Below are positions 11,363-22,472 of a stretch of DNA of 64,000 bases, piece after piece. The DNA lies in the NCBI GenBank assembly GCA_041484665.1, contig JBGPIA010000004.1:32001-96000 (forward strand), given 5' to 3'. How positions within the stretch are numbered: position 1 is the stretch's first letter; the number at the start of each line of letters is the position of its first letter. Below the pieces are notes generated by a model, which was not told the origin of the DNA, made no database searches, and was given only the letters and a program-made list of their open reading frames with translations. This DNA comes from Candidatus Krumholzibacteriia bacterium (GTDB lineage Bacteria > Krumholzibacteriota > Krumholzibacteriia > JAJRXK01). A program made the translations under genes and the position numbers.

Positions 11363-11758
11363 TCAGGAGGCCCCTTCGATCAGCTGCATCTCGCCGTGCT
11401 CCACGAAGCAGACCTTGATGACCAGCCGATTGCCCGGCAGCTTCGCCTTGGCCGTGACGGTGCCGTAATCGTCCCAGCCGCGATGGTGCAGCACGTCGCC
11501 GATCTCGTAGACCGTCTTGGGGTCGTAGGGTCGCGCGCGCGCGATGTCCAGTTCCTCGAGGGTGGGCGCGACCTGCTCGGCGCTCGTGGGCACCGGCGCG
11601 TCCTCCATCCTCGGCAGGATTCCCTTGCAGCGCGGGCACTTCAGCCAGATCACGCCATCCTCGTTGGTGTCGCTCACCACCGTCATCTCGAGGTGGTCCT
11701 TGCACACCGAACAATATTGGCGCATGGCACGTCCCGCAAAGGACAGCTCTGGCTTCAT
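11363..11758 (-). CDS. Zinc-ribbon protein with C-terminal Tudor-like domain
   Basis: CSVC...CPRC; YEIGDVLHHRGWDDYGTV resembles the GDxVxHxxFGxGxV motif of the UvrD/PcrA C-terminal domain. Confidence 0.7.
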   Translation of the reverse strand: MKPELSFAGRAMRQYCSVCKDHLEMTVVSDTNEDGVIWLKCPRCKGILPRMEDAPVPTSAEQVAPTLEELDIARARPYDPKTVYEIGDVLHHRGWDDYGTVTAKAKLPGNRLVIKVCFVEHGEMQLIEGAS

Positions 11759-12146: not shown

Positions 12147-13280
12147 CTACGCGAGCGCGGCGCGGAGGTCGTCGATCAGGTCCTCGACGTCCTCGATCCC
12201 CACGCTGAGGCGCACGAGCCCGTCGGTGATGCCCAGCGCAGCGCGCTCGGTGGCGGGGACGGAAGCATGGGTCATGACGGCGGGATGTGCGATGAGGCTC
12301 TCGACCCCACCGAGACTCTCGGCGAAGGTGAACAGCTTCACGCGCGTGACCGCTGCCTGCGCCGCCTCGAGGCTGCCGAGGTCGAAGGCGATCATGGCGC
12401 CAAAACCGGTCATCTGGCGCCTGGCTAGATCGTGGCCAGGGTGGTCGGGCAGGCCGGGGTAGTAGAGCTTGCGCACACGGGGGTGCCGGGCCAGCATCGC
12501 GGCGATCGCCCGCGCGTTCTCCTCGTGCTGGCGCATGCGCACCGCCAGCGTCTTGACCCCGCGCAGCGCCAGCCAGCAGTCCCAGGGGCCCGGAACGGCG
12601 CCGGCCGCGTTCTGCAGGAAGCGCAGCGCGGCATGGAGCTCGTCGTCGCCGGTGACCACGATCCCGCCCACCATGTCGCTGTGCCCGTTGAGGTACTTGG
12701 TCGTGGAGTGGACCACGGCGTCGGCGCCCAGCGCGAGCGGCCGCTGGAAGTAAGGGCTCATGAAGGTGTTGTCGACCACCAGGCGCGCTGCGCGCGCGTG
12801 GGCCAGGCGTGCCGCGGCGGCGATGTCGGTGATGGAGAGCACCGGGTTGGTCGGGGTCTCGACGTAGAGCATGCGGGTGCGCGGCGTCCACGCCCGCTCC
12901 ACGTTGGCCAGATCGCTGGTGTCCACGAAGGCGAACTCCAGGCCGAAGCGCCGCAGCACCTGCTCGAACAGGCGGTAGGTCCCGCCGTAGACGTTGTGCG
13001 TGCACACCACGTGGTCGCCCCCGCTGAGCGTCTGGACCAGGGCGTGGATGGCAGCCATGCCGCTGGCGTAGGCGATGCCGTGGCGCGCCCCCTCCAGCTT
13101 GGCCACGCAGGCCTCCAGCGCCTCGCGGGTGGGATTCTGCGTGCGCGCGTACTCGTAGCCCTTGTGGCGCCCGATCCCCTCCTGCCGGTAGGTGGAGGTC
13201 TGGAAGACCGGGACCGTCACCGCGCCGGTGGTAGGCTCGGGGTGCTGGCCGGCGTGGATGGCGTCGGTGGCGAAGCCCAC
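12147..13280 (-). CDS. Cystathionine gamma-lyase/synthase (PLP-dependent)
   Basis: FATDAIHAGQ, YARTQNPTR, ETPTNP, DNTF, HSTTKYLNGHSD, AESLGGVESL. Confidence 0.93.
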   Translation of the reverse strand: MGFATDAIHAGQHPEPTTGAVTVPVFQTSTYRQEGIGRHKGYEYARTQNPTREALEACVAKLEGARHGIAYASGMAAIHALVQTLSGGDHVVCTHNVYGGTYRLFEQVLRRFGLEFAFVDTSDLANVERAWTPRTRMLYVETPTNPVLSITDIAAAARLAHARAARLVVDNTFMSPYFQRPLALGADAVVHSTTKYLNGHSDMVGGIVVTGDDELHAALRFLQNAAGAVPGPWDCWLALRGVKTLAVRMRQHEENARAIAAMLARHPRVRKLYYPGLPDHPGHDLARRQMTGFGAMIAFDLGSLEAAQAAVTRVKLFTFAESLGGVESLIAHPAVMTHASVPATERAALGITDGLVRLSVGIEDVEDLIDDLRAALA

Positions 13281-13283
13281 GGC

Positions 13284-14678
13284 TCACTCCTCCCCATGGA
13301 TGTAGTCGATGAGGTCGTAGCGGGTCAGGATCCCCGCGATGCGGCCGTGCTCCCCCACCAGGACGGCCGCATCGCGGCCGCCGAGCAGCTTGAGCACTTC
13401 GAGCGTCGAGCGCGAGCCGTCGATCAAGGGCAGCGCTGGCTCCTGGAAGTCGGACACCCGCGCTCCCATCGCTTCGGTATGGTCCAGGACGGCTGCCATC
13501 AGCTTGCTGTCGGTCACCCGGCCCACCGGCTGGCCGTCGCGCATCACGGGCAGCTGGCTCACCTGGTAGCGGCGCATGAGCTCGATTGCCTCGCGCACGG
13601 GCGCTGCCGCGTCCACCGTGATCAACAGGGGCAGGCCACCGGGCTTGGCATGCACCACGTCGGCCGCGGTCACCACATCGGCGCCCAGGAAGCGGTTCTC
13701 GCGCATCCAGTCGTCGCTGTAGATCTTCGACAGGTAACGCGACCCGGAGTCCGGCAGCAGCACCACCACCAGCTGCGCGGGCGGCAGCTCGCGGGCCACC
13801 TCCAGCGCCACCACCACCGCCGCGCCGCAGCTGCCACCCACGAACAGGCCTTCCAGGCTGGCGAGCTTGCGCGTCGTAAGCATGGCACTGCGGTCGTCCA
13901 CCGTCCGCAGCTCGTCTACCCATTGCCGGTGGAAGCAGCCGGGGATGATGTCCTCGCCGATCCCCTCGATCTTGTAGGGCTCGGCCTCGGTCATCTCGCC
14001 GGTGTCGAACCAGTGCTTGAGGATGCTGCCCTTGGGATCAGCGCCGACGACGCGCACCCCCGGATTCTGCTCCTTGAGGTAGCGGCCCACGCCGCTGATC
14101 GTCCCACAGGTGCCGATCCCCGCCACGAACACGTCGAGCTTGCCCTCGGTCTGCTCCCAGATCTCCGGCCCGGTGGTATCGTAATGGGCCTGCGGGTTGG
14201 CGTCATTGTCGTATTGATTCATCCAGATGCAGTTGTCGTTCTCCTCCGCCAGGCGCCGCGCCACGGAGTAGTAGCTCTCGGGGCTGTCGGGCGGTACGGC
14301 GGTCGGCGTGACGATCACTTCCGCACCCATGGCGCGCAGCAGACGGATCTTCTCCTGGCTCATCTTATCGGGCATCGTGCAGACGAGCTTGTACCCCCGC
14401 ACCGCGCACACCAGGGCCAGCCCCATGCCCGTATTGCCGCTGGTGCACTCCACGACGGTGCCGCCCGCGCGGAGCTTCCCGCTGCGCTCGGCGGCGTCGA
14501 TCATGGTCGTGCCGATGCGGTCCTTCACGCTGCCGCCCGGATTGAAGTACTCGACCTTGGCGTACACCTTCGCGCCGCGCGGGTCGGGGAGGCGGCGCAG
14601 GCGCACCAGCGGCGTTCCGCCGATGGCTTCGGTGATGTCCTCGTAGACCGCGGGTGCGGGGCGGCGGCGTGGCTGCAT
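13284..14678 (-). CDS. Cystathionine beta-synthase with C-terminal CBS domains
   Basis: IGGTPLVRL, NPGGSVKDRI, TSGNTG, GIGTCGT, PDSGSRYLSK, then two CBS repeats. Confidence 0.92.
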   Translation of the reverse strand: MQPRRRPAPAVYEDITEAIGGTPLVRLRRLPDPRGAKVYAKVEYFNPGGSVKDRIGTTMIDAAERSGKLRAGGTVVECTSGNTGMGLALVCAVRGYKLVCTMPDKMSQEKIRLLRAMGAEVIVTPTAVPPDSPESYYSVARRLAEENDNCIWMNQYDNDANPQAHYDTTGPEIWEQTEGKLDVFVAGIGTCGTISGVGRYLKEQNPGVRVVGADPKGSILKHWFDTGEMTEAEPYKIEGIGEDIIPGCFHRQWVDELRTVDDRSAMLTTRKLASLEGLFVGGSCGAAVVVALEVARELPPAQLVVVLLPDSGSRYLSKIYSDDWMRENRFLGADVVTAADVVHAKPGGLPLLITVDAAAPVREAIELMRRYQVSQLPVMRDGQPVGRVTDSKLMAAVLDHTEAMGARVSDFQEPALPLIDGSRSTLEVLKLLGGRDAAVLVGEHGRIAGILTRYDLIDYIHGEE

Positions 14679-14795
14679 GGCGTCGCGAGGAGCGCGGCTC
14701 CCCTCTCCTTTCGTGGCGCGGGGTGGGTCGGTGGGGGTCGCCGCGAGGGCCGGGGCGGTCGCGGCAGGTGCCGTCCCGGGCGGCAAGCCCGGCGC

Positions 14796-15946: not shown

Positions 15947-16723
15947 TCAGCGTTTGCCCGCGCGTGCTGCGAGCACGGCGCGTGGCAGCGCGGTCGCGCC
16001 GTCGGTCCCGAAGGCCAGGCAGCGCAGCTGCAGCAGCGCGATGAGCGGCGGCGGCGCACGCCGGTTGGGCTCGGGTGGATCGACGGCGGTCTCGACGCGC
16101 GTGGTGGTCGTGGCGCCGAGCAGGTGGAACACCGGGACCTGGGCGCTGATCTGCGCCTGGGAGCGGGCCACGGTGCGGTGGATGAGCGTGCGCCGCCCCA
16201 TGGGTACGCGCTGCTCTCGCGTCTCGCTGAGCACCACTTCCTCGCGGGCCAGGCGCCCGCCGCTCCAGGTGGTGTCCGGCAGCGTGGAGCGCGTCAGTTG
16301 CGGCGATGTGAAAATATCCTGGAAATGGCGGCGCACGAGGCGGTTGTTGCGCAGCTGCGCCAGATCCTGCGCCTGCGCGCTCCCGTCGCCGGGCAGCCGG
16401 TAGAGCTCGAGCACTGCGTCGAGCAGGTCGACATCGGCGCGCAGCCGGGAGGGATCCAGCTGGAAGATCCACGACTCGGTCTCGGAGCGCACGCGCAGCT
16501 CCACCCAGCGCGTTCCGTCCGGCTGTGCGGCCCGCACGGCGCAATCCAGCGTGTCGGTCTCGACACGCCCCTCGGCAGCCTCGAGACGTTCCAGCCGCAC
16601 CCATGCCCCCGGCGTCAGCTCGAGGGGGAGCAAACCTCGCCGCCACCAGCTGAACAGCTCCTGCGCGTGCGCGGGGCCCGGCAGCACCGCTGCAAAGCCC
16701 GCGGCCAGCGCGAGGCCACACAC
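15947..16723 (-). CDS. Secreted hypothetical protein (start uncertain)
   Basis: Signal-like VCGLALAAGFAAVLPGPAHA; directly downstream of the cytochrome gene. Confidence 0.5.
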   Translation of the reverse strand: MCGLALAAGFAAVLPGPAHAQELFSWWRRGLLPLELTPGAWVRLERLEAAEGRVETDTLDCAVRAAQPDGTRWVELRVRSETESWIFQLDPSRLRADVDLLDAVLELYRLPGDGSAQAQDLAQLRNNRLVRRHFQDIFTSPQLTRSTLPDTTWSGGRLAREEVVLSETREQRVPMGRRTLIHRTVARSQAQISAQVPVFHLLGATTTTRVETAVDPPEPNRRAPPPLIALLQLRCLAFGTDGATALPRAVLAARAGKR

Positions 16724-16802
16724 CAGCAGCCGGCCCCGCAGACGCGGCCGCCTGGAGAGGACCCTCCCCAGGCGGCGCCGGCGTGCTCGCTGCGCGGGCG
16801 CG

Positions 16803-18206
16803 CTAGTGCTTGATCTTGGCCCAGTAGCTCGCGTACTCAAAGTTCGGGCTGTTCTCCGCCGTGTGGCAGGTCGTGCAGGAGCTCTTGGCGGCGGCGACCC
16901 ACTGGCCGTCGCGCACGTGCTGCGTGCCGTACCCGTGGCACGCCTCGCACTGGACGTTGTACAGCGAATTGCGCCCGCTCTGGGAGTCGCCGCGGTCGTA
17001 GCCGTTGACGTGGTTGTAACCCACCACGTGGCACCCGACGCAGTCGGAGTTGGACTCCTGTCCCTTCTCGACCAGCGTCTGCCAGGCCCGCGCGTGGGCG
17101 CTGGAGGCGTAGGTCTGGTAGTCCTGCGAATGGCACTTGGCGCAGGCGCTGGCGCCCAGGAACTTTTCCGACGTGGACCCCAACGGCCGCGAGTGTGTAT
17201 CCGGCGGGATCTCCTTGGCTTTCTTGGCCGCCTCGGCCTCGAAGCTGGTCACGCGGTCGCGCACCGCGGTGGTCTCCGGGCTCTTCTCGTCGAGCTCGTA
17301 GATGGTGACCGGCTCCTCGCCGAACTGGATCTGGTGACTCTTCTTGTCCACCGTCATGTCCAGCTGGCCGACGTACTTGCCTTGATTGTTGGCCGCCAGC
17401 AGCGCCACGCTGCCGATCTTGTTCAGGCGGCGGTACTGGCGGATGTCCTGCCCCTCGACACAGATGTCGATCAGGGGGTTGTTCCCGTCCTTGTCCCCCA
17501 TGCCCACCAGCAGCTCCCGCGTCTCGGTGCTGGAGAGGTGGGCCAGCAGGACCACCACGTCGCTCTTCTTGCGCAGCTCGGGCAGATACTTGTCCAGGGC
17601 GTCGCGCGGCGAGTCGACTACGAACTGGTCGGGCGTGGCCGACATGGTCGTGATCTTCATCGCCGGGCTCAGCACCGAGATCACGCCGATCCTCAGCCCC
17701 TCCTGCTCGATCACCGTGTAGGGCGGGAACAGCAGCGGGCCGCCGGCGGTCTGGCGCACGTTGGCGTTGACGAAGAGGAACCCGTAGGTCTTCTCCGTCT
17801 CGCGCAGGTAGTCCAGGCCGTAGTTGAGGTCCATCTCGCCGACGCCGAAGACCTTGTAGCCCAGCGCGGCGGTCTCCTTGCACAGGAAGCTCGTCTGGTC
17901 CTTCTCGGACTGCGTGCGCTGACCGAACAGGTCGCCGCCGTCCAACGCCACGACGTTCTTGTGCTCGTGGCGGATCTTCTCGAAGAGGGCGGCCCTCCGG
18001 GCCAGCCCGCCCAGCTGCTTCGACTTTCACCCACAGGGAGAGATCTTGCCCTGCACCGCTGATTGGAACAGCAGCGTCAGGTCGACGCCCTGGTCGGCGC
18101 GGCTCTCGCGGCCGGCGACGACCAGGGCGGCGAGCAACAGGGCCAAGGCTGCGACGAGCGCGCTCCCGCGCCGTCCCAGCATGGAGCGGTTGGACTCCCG
18201 CGACAT
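16803..18206 (-). CDS. Probable selenoprotein: secreted UshA/5'-nucleotidase-like domain (PCG-U) fused to a tetraheme cytochrome c
   Basis: ORFs 18027..18230 and 16803..17951 are in the same frame, separated only by TGA at 18027-18029: QGKISPCG*KSKQLGGLARRAA...DGGDLF; AAGGAGG RBS; signal peptide; CAKCH, CVGCH, CEACH, CTTCH. Confidence 0.85.
17987..18012 (-). promoter_or_regulatory. Candidate bacterial SECIS hairpin
   Basis: GGGC-GGGCT-GGCCC-GGA-GGGCC-GCCC; G-containing apical loop 29-31 nt after the UGA. Confidence 0.6.
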
Positions 18207-18272
18207 CCGGCAACCTCCTTGGTGTGCCAACGCAGGCGGTGGGCGCCGGCCGGCGCCGCCGCACAGGGTGTC

Positions 18273-18356: not shown

Positions 18357-21300
18357 TCAGTAGCCGAACACCTGGCCGTACCCTCCGCCGACTCCCTGGT
18401 GCCCGCGCGTGACCTTGAGGTCGGGGATCTGTTTGAGATAGAGGCGGAACCCGAACTCGCTGCCGCCGCCGTCGACGCTGCGATCGAACTCCAGCGCCCA
18501 GCAGTGGATGTCGCGGCGCAGGCTGTAGTACTGATTGGTGAACTGGCCGCGGCTCACGTCCAACTCGGTGCTGTAGTGCAACGACCACGCCCCCGGAAGG
18601 GCCACGTTGCCGTCGGCGTTGACGTGGGTCGGCGTGCTCGCGCCGGCCGAGCTCTGGAGATAGCTGTAGCGCAGGTCCACACTCCAGGGGAGCCGGTTGC
18701 GGTCGTGGGACCCGTGCACGCCAAAGCTGCCCGACTCCTCGTCCCCGCCCCACCCGGCGCCCTGCGGGTGCGAGCCTTCCCCCGCTGCCGCCTGCCCTTC
18801 GCGTGCGGAGTCGCCGCGGGCGGGGATGCGCTGCAGTACCGGGCTGAGGCGCTCTTTGCGCTGCAGCAGCGCGCCCCCCAGGTCCAGATCCCCGCCGAGG
18901 TGCAGGTTGCCCTGGATGGTGGACTGCGAGCTCAGCACGTGGAGGTCGTGGGGATCCAGCTGGTGGGAGACCACCAGGTTGACCAAGCGCCCGCCAATGG
19001 GCTGCACGGTGACGGTGCTGGTGATGGGGCTCCACTCGGCGCCCGCCGCAGCTTCCGGGTCGTAGCTCGCCGCCAGGCTCCACCGCACCAGCTGGTCCAG
19101 CTTGCGCGATGCCTCCTTGTCCGGCTGCGGGCCCGACCCTGAGGCGTCGGACGCGACACCTGCCGCCCCTGGGATGCGGGAGCTGCCGGTGGCGTCAGCG
19201 CGTTCGCTGGCGCCGGTACCCAGCGACGTGTCTGCACCGGCCCGCGCGCCGGCGCGGCCCGTGTCGGCCAAAGCGTGCGCCGCGCGCAGTTTGACGGACA
19301 GCTCGTTGTCCAAACCGAAGTTGAATCTCTGGCTGCGGCTCTGCTTGGCCCCCAGCTGGGGGCTGAAGCTGTGCCCCATGCTCCAGGTGACCTTGTGCTT
19401 GATCCCCGTGACCGGACCCAGGCGGGTGCGGAAGATCCCGTAGAGATCGGTGCGCAGCGAATTGGTGAAGGAGAGATTGGGGGTGACCTTGTCCCGCAGG
19501 TCATCGCGGTGCTCGCGCAGGCGCACGCTCTGGGTCACCACCAGGCTGTCGGGCAGCCCCGGACGCGGCACGAGCGTCGTATCGGAGAAGACCGCGTAGA
19601 GCGATTGATGCGTGCTGGTCCGGTTGTAGTCGAAGCCGAAGCCGGCGCTGCTGGTGAAGGCGAACAGCCACAACCGTCCCTTGGGCGCGTAGGCGAGGCG
19701 GTAGGCGCCTCCGGCGCCGATGGCGTCCTGCTGCGTGTTCTCGCTGCGAGTTTGGTCCAGTTGCCCGCGGTACGACTGGCTGAACTGGATGTCGCGCAGG
19801 ACGTTGGTGATGGGCGTACCGAGCTCGTCGCCGTGCAGCGGGGGCAGCAGCGGCCCAGTCTTGAACCCCAGCGTCGCCGCCGGGAGCGTCGTCCGCGAGA
19901 GCTGCTTGTCGGTCAGCGGATCGCCGTCGCCGGCGTTGACGAATTGATCGCGCGAGCCCGACAGGGACAGGTTTACCCCCGATCCGAACGTGCGCGAGAG
20001 CCGCCCCGTGCTGCGCAGCTGGGTGGGCAGCAGGTCGCGCCGGGCGTCGCTGTTCAAGTTGTTGCGCGTGAGGTTCTGGCTGCTGGCGGAGACGTCCGCC
20101 CCGGCGTTCCAGACCTCCCACAGATTCGGCTGGTTGTGGTGTGCGGTGAGGCGCCACTCGTCCCCGCGCGTCTCCCCCAGCTTGACGCCGAAGGCGCGCA
20201 GGTACGAGAAGCTCACCTGGCCGTCCATGCCGTAGCGCACGCGGTAACGGTTGCTCAGCGCGAGGGTGAAATCCTTGCGCTCGTTGTAGTCCAGCTGGAA
20301 GGTGAAGTCGGTGTAGTCGTTGGTGGCCCAGTAGTAGCCCAGGTCGCGGATGTAGCGCCCTTCGCGGCTGCTCACTCCGACGTCGACCCGCGGGAACAGG
20401 ATCCCCGAGTGCCTGCCCGAGTCGAGGCTCTTGAAATAGAACGGTAGCGGCAGCACCGGCAGGTCGCTCACGTAGAAGGTGACCTGGCGCGCCACCACCT
20501 GCTCGTTGAGCCGCAGTCTCATGCGCTTGGCGGTAAAGTGGTAGTGCGGCTCCGCCAGGTCGCAGCTGGTATAGGTTGCGTCGCGCACCAGCAGCGTCTT
20601 CTCATCCAGCCGGCGCACGTGCTTGCCGTAGTAGAAGCCGTCCTGGTAGCGCGTCCCCCCTTCGGCGACGGCACCGGTCTGGGGATCGAAGAGGTAACCC
20701 ATGCGGTCGCCCAGCAGCTCGCTCTCCTTGTCCTTGAGCAGGGGGTCCCCCTCCGCCAGCAGCTCCCGGGCGTTGGTGTCGAAGTGGATCTCCTGGCTGC
20801 CCAGGGTCAGAGTCCCGTGTTGCACCTCGGCGTCGCCGGAGATGAGGATCAGGCCGCGCGGAACGGCGAAGGACGCCCGCTTGCCCTTGTAGAGCACCTT
20901 CTCCGCGTGCGCGTCGAAGTCGATGCGCGCCGCCGTGGAGTCGCCGCCGGCGCCGCGAGTCCGGACTGCAGCCGTGTCCGCCACGGCGGTCGCCCGTGGG
21001 GCAGCCGGTGGTGCAGCCGAACTGCTGTCGGCGTGGGCAGCCGCATGGGGCTCGCCCCGGACAGCCGCGCTGCTGTCGGCGCTCGCGGCCGCCGCCATGC
21101 GCTTGCGCTCCAGGAAGCGGTAGGCCCCCTCGACCTGGCCGTGCACGTCGACACGATCGACGTGCCCGCTCAGGAAGCTGATGTCGATCGCCGAGCCGGA
21201 GACCTCGTTTACCGAGATGGTCGAGCTCTGGTCCTCCGGGAGGTAGGTGCTGCGGGCCGATCCGCGCACGCGGGTGTGGGTCACCTCGTCGTGCACGACG

Positions 21301-22472
21301 TCGATGCTCAGCGTGTCGCCGCGCAGCTGGTTGGCCAGCGGCACGGCGGTGAAGATGCGCCGCAGCGTGTCGGGGCTGCTATCCACCAGCTCGGTCTGCC
21401 CGAAGACGTCGATGCGCCGCAGTTCGCCGCCCTCGTAGAAGAAGCTGGCGCGTTCCCCCGTCAGCGCCTGGCGCCCCTGCTCTACGCGCGGCGTGCCGGT
21501 AAGCACGAGCAGGCTGTCGCCCTGGAAGTCCGCACTGTCGGCGGTGGCGCTCGTGGCACCCTGCCGGAAGCGCACCGCACCCACCGCCCGACGGCGCGAG
21601 CCGTCGCGTTGGAAGACCATGCGGCGGCTCTCCACTTCGGCCAGGCGCTGTCCCTGGCGGCGCGACGTGAGGTGCGGCAGCGAGTCGACCCAGGCCAGGC
21701 CGCTGCGCCGATCGAACCGCGCGCGCGCGCCGGTGATGAGAGTCTGATTGGCGCCATCGACGATGCGCACCGCTCCGAACGCCTGGAGCACTCCGGCGGC
21801 GCGGTCATAGGTCAGCGAGTCCGCATCCACGACGATCGCCCCGTCGATCATGCGGGCATCGCCGGCCAGCGCCAGCCACCGGTCGCTGCGCCGGAGGATG
21901 CCGCGCGCGCCCGTGCCCGTGGTGCCTTCCAGGGTCTGCAGCTTCACGCTGCCAAAGGCGCGGGCGAGGTCGGCGCGCTCGATCACCTCGACGCTGTCGG
22001 CCCAGACGGTGAGCGACTCGGAAACGGCGTGCACCGCGCCGACCAGAAAGGTCTCTTCGCGGTCCATGTCGCGGCGCGCGTGATCGGCAGTCAGCGTCAC
22101 GCCCGTACGGTGGGCGGAGACGTTGCCCGTCAAGACGAGGAAGCGGCGCTGCTCGACGGTAACGATGCGGCCATGGTCGCCATTGACGGTCCAGCGGCCG
22201 GCAACGACTGCGGGCGCCACCGCCGGAGCAGGCGCCGCGGCCGGGCCCGGCGGCGGGGCGGACGGAGCAGCCCCCGGAGCACGCGCGGCGGCGGGGCCGG
22301 GCGGCGGGGAGCCGCTCTGCGCCGCCGCGGCGCACGCCAGCGCAACCGAGACGAGCACCGCCAGCGGCCTGGCCGCCGTGGGCCCGCGCCGGGCGCGCGC
22401 TGCTCGCTCGTCCATGGGCGTCCTGCCGTTGGCGCCGACCGGGGGCGACGGTTGCGCGGACTCGCTATTCAA
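18357..22472 (-). CDS. lptD: Large LPS-assembly protein LptD with extended OstA/LptA-like N-terminus
   Basis: OstA-like beta repeats, YTSCDLAEPHYHFTA, PVLPLPFY, SGILFP, GYYWATNDY, LRRDIHCW; alternative start at 22415. Confidence 0.82.
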   Translation of the reverse strand: MNSESAQPSPPVGANGRTPMDERAARARRGPTAARPLAVLVSVALACAAAAQSGSPPPGPAAARAPGAAPSAPPPGPAAAPAPAVAPAVVAGRWTVNGDHGRIVTVEQRRFLVLTGNVSAHRTGVTLTADHARRDMDREETFLVGAVHAVSESLTVWADSVEVIERADLARAFGSVKLQTLEGTTGTGARGILRRSDRWLALAGDARMIDGAIVVDADSLTYDRAAGVLQAFGAVRIVDGANQTLITGARARFDRRSGLAWVDSLPHLTSRRQGQRLAEVESRRMVFQRDGSRRRAVGAVRFRQGATSATADSADFQGDSLLVLTGTPRVEQGRQALTGERASFFYEGGELRRIDVFGQTELVDSSPDTLRRIFTAVPLANQLRGDTLSIDVVHDEVTHTRVRGSARSTYLPEDQSSTISVNEVSGSAIDISFLSGHVDRVDVHGQVEGAYRFLERKRMAAAASADSSAAVRGEPHAAAHADSSSAAPPAAPRATAVADTAAVRTRGAGGDSTAARIDFDAHAEKVLYKGKRASFAVPRGLILISGDAEVQHGTLTLGSQEIHFDTNARELLAEGDPLLKDKESELLGDRMGYLFDPQTGAVAEGGTRYQDGFYYGKHVRRLDEKTLLVRDATYTSCDLAEPHYHFTAKRMRLRLNEQVVARQVTFYVSDLPVLPLPFYFKSLDSGRHSGILFPRVDVGVSSREGRYIRDLGYYWATNDYTDFTFQLDYNERKDFTLALSNRYRVRYGMDGQVSFSYLRAFGVKLGETRGDEWRLTAHHNQPNLWEVWNAGADVSASSQNLTRNNLNSDARRDLLPTQLRSTGRLSRTFGSGVNLSLSGSRDQFVNAGDGDPLTDKQLSRTTLPAATLGFKTGPLLPPLHGDELGTPITNVLRDIQFSQSYRGQLDQTRSENTQQDAIGAGGAYRLAYAPKGRLWLFAFTSSAGFGFDYNRTSTHQSLYAVFSDTTLVPRPGLPDSLVVTQSVRLREHRDDLRDKVTPNLSFTNSLRTDLYGIFRTRLGPVTGIKHKVTWSMGHSFSPQLGAKQSRSQRFNFGLDNELSVKLRAAHALADTGRAGARAGADTSLGTGASERADATGSSRIPGAAGVASDASGSGPQPDKEASRKLDQLVRWSLAASYDPEAAAGAEWSPITSTVTVQPIGGRLVNLVVSHQLDPHDLHVLSSQSTIQGNLHLGGDLDLGGALLQRKERLSPVLQRIPARGDSAREGQAAAGEGSHPQGAGWGGDEESGSFGVHGSHDRNRLPWSVDLRYSYLQSSAGASTPTHVNADGNVALPGAWSLHYSTELDVSRGQFTNQYYSLRRDIHCWALEFDRSVDGGGSEFGFRLYLKQIPDLKVTRGHQGVGGGYGQVFGY

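Follow-up and report, generated by a model that had tools for sequence, protein, structure and literature searches.

What does a gene encode when its reading frame runs from ATG to TAG across a single TGA, and what would its product do? Positions 16803..18206 of the 64,000-nucleotide stretch of Candidatus Krumholzibacteriia DNA analyzed here (the window) raise this question; a preliminary description had proposed that they hide a selenoprotein, in which an UshA-like domain with a PCG-U motif is fused to a tetraheme cytochrome c. We find the coordinates to be right, although that description was silent on the strand: the gene lies on the minus strand, as do the features placed within it below, and the plus-strand frame of the interval is meaningless. 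The reverse complement is an ATG-to-TAG open reading frame whose only in-frame TGA is codon 60 (18027-18029), in the context GKISPCG-U-KSKQLGGLARRA; PCG-U occupies residues 57 to 60, the Cys58-Gly59-Sec60 motif corresponds to 18027..18035, and read-through yields the 467 aa that had been predicted. The other features described earlier are also seen, namely a strong ribosome-binding site (AAGGAGG, 18214..18220, minus strand, 7 nt ahead of the ATG), four CxxCH motifs, and an N-terminus that by eye, and by its likeness to the N-termini of homologs, is probably a signal peptide (residues ~1-37; 18096..18206).

Evidence for selenocysteine at codon 60

By every genomic criterion applied, UGA60 reads as a Sec codon, and we regard its read-through as nearly certain. 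The Sec machinery, which the preliminary description had named as a check on its claim, is present: selA, selB, selC, and selD all score over cut-off in the source genome (G000), where tRNA-Sec(TCA) is also found by ARAGORN, and all 41 genomes of the class have selA. Two side observations on this genome are that selD (contig C10, 74937-75869; L009) carries an in-frame TGA of its own and so represents a second selenoprotein gene, and that ARAGORN reports no tRNA gene on the largest contig, C1 (1.06 Mb).

The TGA itself is conserved. All 41 class genomes contain a homolog, and in 40 it bears a TGA (38 full-length genes with one TGA and 2 partial TGA-bearing matches), the remaining genome having the Cys form only; all 30 loci read have their TGA at one and the same codon, with four CxxCH motifs after it. 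A wider set of 80 loci from GTDB genomes, spanning Krumholzibacteriota, Eisenbacteria, Acidobacteriota, Planctomycetota, Poribacteria, Latescibacterota, Nitrospinota, Gammaproteobacteria, and others, comprises 47 TGA forms, 30 Cys forms, and 3 cut by contig ends, so that position 60 is Sec or Cys in all 77 loci whose N-terminus is on the contig. The Cys homologs that had been suggested as a further check thus exist in number, and two Cys-form database proteins (P0004 and P0006, seen as protein records and not as DNA) are 65-67% identical to the query. A FastTree phylogeny of 117 N-domains, rooted at the midpoint and used here without any claim about the direction of change, implies at least 11 switches between Sec and Cys; the query's two nearest neighbors in it are recorded as Cys.

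Because the first Cys is missing from 8 loci and the cytochrome from 8 of 113 homologs, we take position 60 to be the core of the family, and the first Cys and the hemes to be usual but not universal. The 8 loci in question (L070, L071, L072, L103, L106, L115, L118, and L126) carry AG-U or FG-U, with Ala or Phe where the first Cys would stand, and keep the TGA, the SECIS element, and the four hemes; a search for CxU motifs would overlook them. The complete conservation of C58 and U/C60 in our set of 113 distinct homologs holds by construction; 11 loci that the motif search had not picked up lie outside that set and were checked separately (one spurious motif match, L141, was excluded from both the set and the tree). 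On the sequences compared, the invariant of the family is Sec (or Cys) at position 60 and not the CxU pair.

A G-loop hairpin downstream of the TGA had also been noted, and this part of the claim holds, backed by covariation; stability alone lends it no support. The putative bacterial SECIS element (17988..18011; core stem 17990-18004, GGA loop 17996-17998) lies within the GGLARRA codons, and over three segments its stability relative to shuffled sequences (z values of -0.87, 0.52, and -0.36) was no better than chance, for which reason we dropped stability as evidence and used covariation instead. Across 32 distinct Sec genes, 99.0% of the cells of the 6-bp stem are paired, with 25 two-sided changes; none of 500 shuffles reached this value, and slid controls gave 39-59%. 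The 10 distinct Cys homologs, by comparison, are 63.3% paired, a level equaled by 320 of 500 shuffles, and they nonetheless keep the same GGx(A/G)RR-type peptide. We consider this contrast the stronger control, since the structure was derived from the same Sec sequences on which it was scored. The query hairpin also shows each of the features listed for bacterial SECIS elements in the consulted part of PMC13188914, namely a G-containing loop of 3-9 nt, a position 16-37 nt after the UGA, and conserved pairing.

Contigs from three of four other sequencing runs, none of them marked as a possible source of the assembly, span the TGA without a difference, so that it is not a sequencing error; the fourth run has almost no cover there. 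As anticipated in the preliminary description, gene callers handle the family poorly: full-length entries (~460 aa) make up just 4 of the best 120 database proteins listed; the remainder are shorter, most of them spanning 75-86% of the query, and the two shortened entries that we inspected start after the Sec codon.

A nucleotidase-like domain joined to a c554-like cytochrome

The gene encodes a member of the NCBIfam family NF041198 (UshA_like_PCGU). The query scores 293.2 bits against a cut-off of 275 (285.5 in the genome search) and has the family's CxU/CxC motif near the N-terminus of the UshA-like domain (PCG-U, residues 57-60); against another family profile, with a cut-off of 140 bits, it reaches only 48.6 bits. 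It matches positions 3-275 and 356-519 of the 519-position model and is without some 80 model positions between the two domains. Since the cytochrome half matches the same model (positions 356-519, E 1.9e-35), the fusion belongs to the catalogued family; thus, the joining of four hemes to an UshA-like domain, put forward in the preliminary description, is real but not new. The family, COG0737 UshA-like with CxU, is already catalogued and has been listed since at least 2008: it forms a table row in PMC2398784, PMC9312934, and PMC13188914, in whose consulted parts no function is given and hemes are unmentioned, and the table in PMC2398784 counts 76 Sec reads of the family in 20 GOS samples. In our literature search, with subscription papers and supplements outside its scope, we found no functional study of the UshA-like Sec/heme family.

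Residues ~38-331 (17214..18095) adopt, in fold searches and alignment, the 5'-nucleotidase (UshA/SoxB) fold followed by a long linker helix. The AlphaFold2 two-domain model is confident (pLDDT 93.2, pTM 0.89), and a search based on it assigns a metallophosphoesterase fold, the matches of the N-domain including 3ivd (Z 33.9, rmsd 2.6, 284 residues aligned), E. coli UshA (1ush, Z 32.8), and SoxB (2wdc, Z 30.5). The UshA-like assignment is therefore sound, by fold search and by the NF041198 match. With UshA, CD73, and SoxB the query shares the fold of the N-domain together with the linker helix (Z 30-34, rmsd 2.6-2.9), the GGxAR helix, and the GD and GxxE/D motifs; it differs from them in its metal ligands, in lacking the catalytic His, in the added Sec/Cys loop, and in having a cytochrome in place of the substrate domain.

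Aligned to the Thermus 5'-nucleotidase 2z1a, the query has A50, Q52, D92, E124, M125, H223, Q253, and I255 at the dimetal and catalytic columns, which we labeled by the E. coli UshA numbering. It keeps two of the seven metal ligands (D92 and H223) and has M125 for the catalytic His, so that the complete dimetal set and catalytic His of an active 5'-nucleotidase or SoxB are absent; the altered motifs QSAVQG and GEMD are as had been described. Judged by this alignment, the hydrolase active site is degraded. The CxU loop comes directly after the first metal-ligand strand. Among the 113 distinct homologs, the catalytic His occurs in 1, both first-metal ligands in 6, and the second-metal set (D, E/N, H, H) in 43, while R70 is kept in 113 and R71 in 109, partly by selection of the set.

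The C-terminal domain (residues 341-467; 16806..17186; PF13435) resembles cytochrome c554, whose structure 1bvb is matched with Z 10.6, rmsd 2.6, 120 aligned residues, and 29% identity (next match, Z 5.6). Its heme motifs are C355-x-x-C358-H359 (17130..17144), C389-x-x-C392-H393 (17028..17042), C420-x-x-C423-H424 (16935..16949), and C444-x-x-C447-H448 (16863..16877), for hemes 1 to 4, respectively. Exactly three other His residues are conserved, H371 (105 of 105 homologs), H430 (105 of 105), and H467 (101 of 105), and these align with distal ligands of c554; four CxxCH motifs, the c554 fold, and three distal His together identify the domain as c554 type. As only three distal His are conserved while there are four hemes, and given the alignment, the distal site of heme 2 is probably open, as in c554. 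Compared with c554 of Nitrosomonas europaea (PF13435; OcwA hemes 1-4 are a further close system), the domain has the same fold, the four CxxCH motifs, and the three distal His, but it is shorter (127 aa) and fused, and no link to hydroxylamine oxidation appears in the contexts seen. The cytochrome is absent in 8 of 113 homologs. The hydrolase ligands are dispensable and the heme ligands not, as judged by a catalytic His kept in 1 of 113 against near-complete retention of H371, H430, and H467.

UshA-like selenoproteins had been placed among anaerobes in the preliminary description; that they have been predicted is correct, but the limit to anaerobes is too narrow. The source genome contains two heme-copper oxidase subunit I genes as well as cytochrome c assembly genes, from which we conclude that the protein is not confined to anaerobes, and homologs of the family also occur in Blastocatellia, Nitrospina, Planctomycetota, and Gammaproteobacteria.

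Two further copies related to the gene were seen in the source genome. One is a heme-free Cys paralog of ~345 aa (L050; contig C11, 83018-84061), with 40% identity and with codons that form no SECIS hairpin any more; in the tree it joins L062 and L063, likewise heme-free Cys paralogs, in a group that is sister to the clade of the query. The other (L051; C11, 2113-2273) repeats the 3' end of the gene (window positions 16773-16934) over 162 bp at 93% identity and is fused in frame to a small ORF that is unrelated to it. Its variant letters and junctions recur in other samples, so it is more than an assembly slip and could be a relic of recombination or integration.

Gene neighborhood and disulfide-forming systems

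The upstream neighbor is lptD (18357..22472, minus strand), in a conserved accD-folC-lptD-Sec gene synteny. An LptD cluster is found in 31 of 101 loci, and the accD-folC-lptD order, seen in this class and in Eisenbacteria, represents a housekeeping position; of 30 LptD ORFs, 25 retain the Cys pair. A dedicated operon was considered and rejected, as the context is one of housekeeping synteny that differs by phylum, and most neighbors are unrelated housekeeping genes. Downstream, window positions 12147-14786 (minus strand) encode cystathionine beta-synthase-like and Cys/Met PLP-lyase proteins; a cystathionine beta-synthase-like gene accompanies the family gene at 12 of 101 loci. Two minus-strand ORFs (15947-16840 and 11363-11758) have no Pfam match; the one of 131 aa has paired Cys motifs and falls into a cluster with ORFs from 19 of 101 loci. 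Elsewhere in the source genome, crude gene calls give 29 ORFs with at least two CxxCH motifs, including very large multiheme cytochrome clusters (C2, 704000-737000; C11, 110000-115100) with ORFs of 42, 28, and 23 CxxCH motifs and another ORF with 19 on C10.

Links to thiol-redox proteins are found in 11 of 80 loci, from about 5 lineages. They take the form of a C-terminal fusion to a single-Cys DsbA/GILT-like thioredoxin domain in three loci (L137:5247-6773, L148:9288-10817, and L161:9309-9839), a DsbA-like gene 15-136 nt downstream in five (L128, L133, L138, L143, and L145), MauE directly upstream in two (L127 and L139), and an AhpC/TSA (peroxiredoxin) gene upstream in one (L135). The other 69 of the 80 loci showed no such link among the material scanned (48 of 89 extracted neighbor or fusion ORFs, plus 39 proteins).

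We considered whether the protein substitutes for DsbB. Searches of the 41 class genomes turned up DsbB in none and VKOR in 2, whereas MauE is present, as a single copy, in all 41; MauE was shown to replace DsbB, its CGC motif being a proven redox site, according to the consulted part of 10.64898/2026.03.05.709764. The scarcity of DsbB and VKOR in this class is therefore already explained by MauE. Of 50 other carrier genomes, DsbB is over cut-off in 2 and VKOR in 7, and 23 (completeness not given) have none of DsbB, VKOR, and MauE over cut-off. In Acidobacteriota, DsbB or VKOR occurs in 3 of 19 carriers of the heme form against 38 of 81 genomes without a family match (Fisher p 0.018, with kin that are not independent), the sample being 121 genomes from which 21 with ambiguous or heme-less matches were left out of the comparison; MauE occurs in 15 of the 19 carriers and in 87 of the 121 overall. 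(The tallies over 121 genomes, that is, the any-match and MauE counts, include the unpublished G113, which is not among the 19 carriers.) Moreover, two tests for an even-cysteine bias in exported proteins of the source genome, based on crude gene and signal-peptide calls and run with no positive control, gave null results (0.429 versus 0.438 for random; 0.442 versus 0.445), and no stand-alone DsbA-type gene (PF13462) was found in this genome, which is 93.65% complete. Given MauE in 41 of 41 genomes and the two null tests, we rejected a DsbB substitute as a general explanation and as the sole substitute in this class. As a separate observation, the source genome encodes on C2 (510522-511610) a MauE with its CGC motif fused to a CxxC-motif domain, probably thioredoxin-like, which is possibly a disulfide-forming system in one protein.

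Candidate functions

Tentatively, and a little short of calling it an even chance, we favor the view that the protein is a periplasmic selenol/thiol-to-cytochrome oxidoreductase, working in envelope thiol-redox chemistry in either the oxidizing or the reducing direction. After export and heme attachment it would be a soluble periplasmic protein, for which the genome has the assembly genes noted above. Sec60 would act as the nucleophile; its reaction with a thiol or disulfide partner would yield a mixed selenenyl-sulfide, which Cys58, where present, would resolve. The heme chain, entered at the open heme 2, would then break this two-electron chemistry down into single-electron transfers, with respiratory cytochromes as acceptors or donors. 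The cytochrome follows the same linker helix that in UshA leads to the C-terminal substrate domain and, by analogy with the domain that it replaces, may close over the old active-site face. The likeliest partners would be thioredoxin-fold envelope proteins, DsbA/GILT-like or MauE-linked, and the role would be the upkeep of envelope thiol redox. The openness of heme 2, the closeness of Sec to heme, the partners, and the direction are all points that we infer.

This oxidoreductase reading is supported by Sec or Cys at position 60 in 77 of 77 loci, the at least 11 switches between the two, the retention of the heme ligands, the 11 of 80 thiol-redox contexts, and the confident model. We also count in its favor the housekeeping-like retention of the gene (a homolog in 41 of 41 genomes, commonly right after lptD) and the precedent of the MauE CGC motif, as set out in the consulted part of 10.64898/2026.03.05.709764. 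MauE has a similar CGC-type redox motif, and a coupling of thiol chemistry to the respiratory chain is what we infer for the query; however, MauE, DsbB, and VKOR are four-helix membrane proteins that use quinone, while the query is predicted to be soluble and heme based. Against the oxidoreductase reading we count the lack of an even-cysteine bias and of a stand-alone DsbA, the presence of MauE in all 41 class genomes, the 69 of 80 loci that are unlinked (the 11 linked ones falling in about 5 lineages), and the existence of heme-free forms and of forms without the first Cys.

The main alternative, doubtful but possible, is that the protein is a small-molecule reductase resembling MccSep, in which Cys58 or Sec60 would sit on or beside heme 2, Sec would attack a polysulfide, selenite, peroxide, or S-oxide held by Arg70 and Arg71, and electrons would arrive via hemes 1, 3, and 4. 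MccSep/ExtKL (NF040886), as described in the consulted part of PMC13510729, supplies the logic: a His/Cys-ligated heme 2, Sec contributed by another domain, and an anion-binding Arg. The query family is like it in being periplasmic, in drawing Sec from a second domain, in having a non-His distal site at heme 2, and in existing as Sec and Cys forms; the missing distal His of heme 2, the constancy of R70 and R71 (113 and 109 of 113, partly by selection), the cystathionine beta-synthase-like genes in 12 of 101 loci, and a genome rich in multiheme ORFs would all fit. Nonetheless, five hemes, an Ig-like Sec domain, a DGUP loop, and a distribution among sulfur respirers are, in that part of PMC13510729, properties of MccSep and not of the query family; the query has four CxxCH motifs and no NF040886 match, and MccSep is absent from our sequence and fold search results (it may not be in the libraries searched). 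The resemblance is one of analogy and not of homology. Furthermore, no sulfur-respiration genes appear among the recurrent neighbors, Cys58 is lost in 8 loci, and the family occurs in organisms and samples of aerobic lifestyle, as indicated by the heme-copper oxidases and by the GOS reads tabulated in the consulted part of PMC2398784.

We think it improbable that the protein retains a metallo-hydrolase activity, as a SoxB-like thiosulfohydrolase or a phosphoesterase in which a one-metal site would remain, Sec would carry the substrate covalently, and the hemes would oxidize or gate it. The fold resembles that of SoxB (Z 30.5) no less than that of nucleotidases, and 43 of 113 homologs have the second-metal set, but the query itself keeps only D92 and H223, the catalytic His survives in a single homolog, whole clades have Sec and hemes without a metal site, and sox genes are not among the recurrent neighbors. 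Just as little credence, in our judgment, is due to the binding, sensing, or detoxification of soft metals or metalloids, whereby CxU would bind Cu, Hg, or As at the remodeled pocket and the hemes would change its redox state: the place of the CxU loop directly after the first metal-ligand strand and the heme-free forms are consistent with this, while the core-genome position, the dispensable first Cys, and recurrent neighbors that include no metal-resistance or transporter genes speak against it. Finally, a pseudogene, a sequencing error, or two separate ORFs, for which one could cite a hairpin no stabler than its shuffles, has practically no chance of being correct and is refuted by the recurrence of the TGA in three other samples, its unchanged codon position across all 30 loci read, the Cys homologs, the SECIS covariation, and selA in 41 of 41 genomes.

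Returning to the oxidoreductase reading, a bolder form of it, which we consider unlikely, is that the whole family constitutes a soluble, cytochrome-coupled envelope thiol oxidase or reductase, in which a dead nucleotidase scaffold would present Sec or Cys to an open c554-type heme. It would then add to DsbB, VKOR, and MauE a fourth route connecting disulfide chemistry in the periplasm with respiration, and this route would predominate in lineages (Planctomycetota and Poribacteria among them) in which our searches found none of those three. The gene itself adds little, in that the family is listed and a curated HMM covers the whole fusion. Its value lies in pointing to a very widespread periplasmic Sec/heme protein, near universal in this class and routinely shortened in databases, for which none of the papers found reports a tested function. 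The comparisons make function testable: they single out Sec as the indispensable residue and heme 2 as the likely site of reaction, they supply full-length Cys forms (e.g., L055-L060) whose expression needs no Sec machinery, and they name the DsbA-like fusions and neighbors as candidate partners. If a link between envelope disulfides and cytochromes proved true, it would fill part of a recognized gap in bacterial disulfide pathways.
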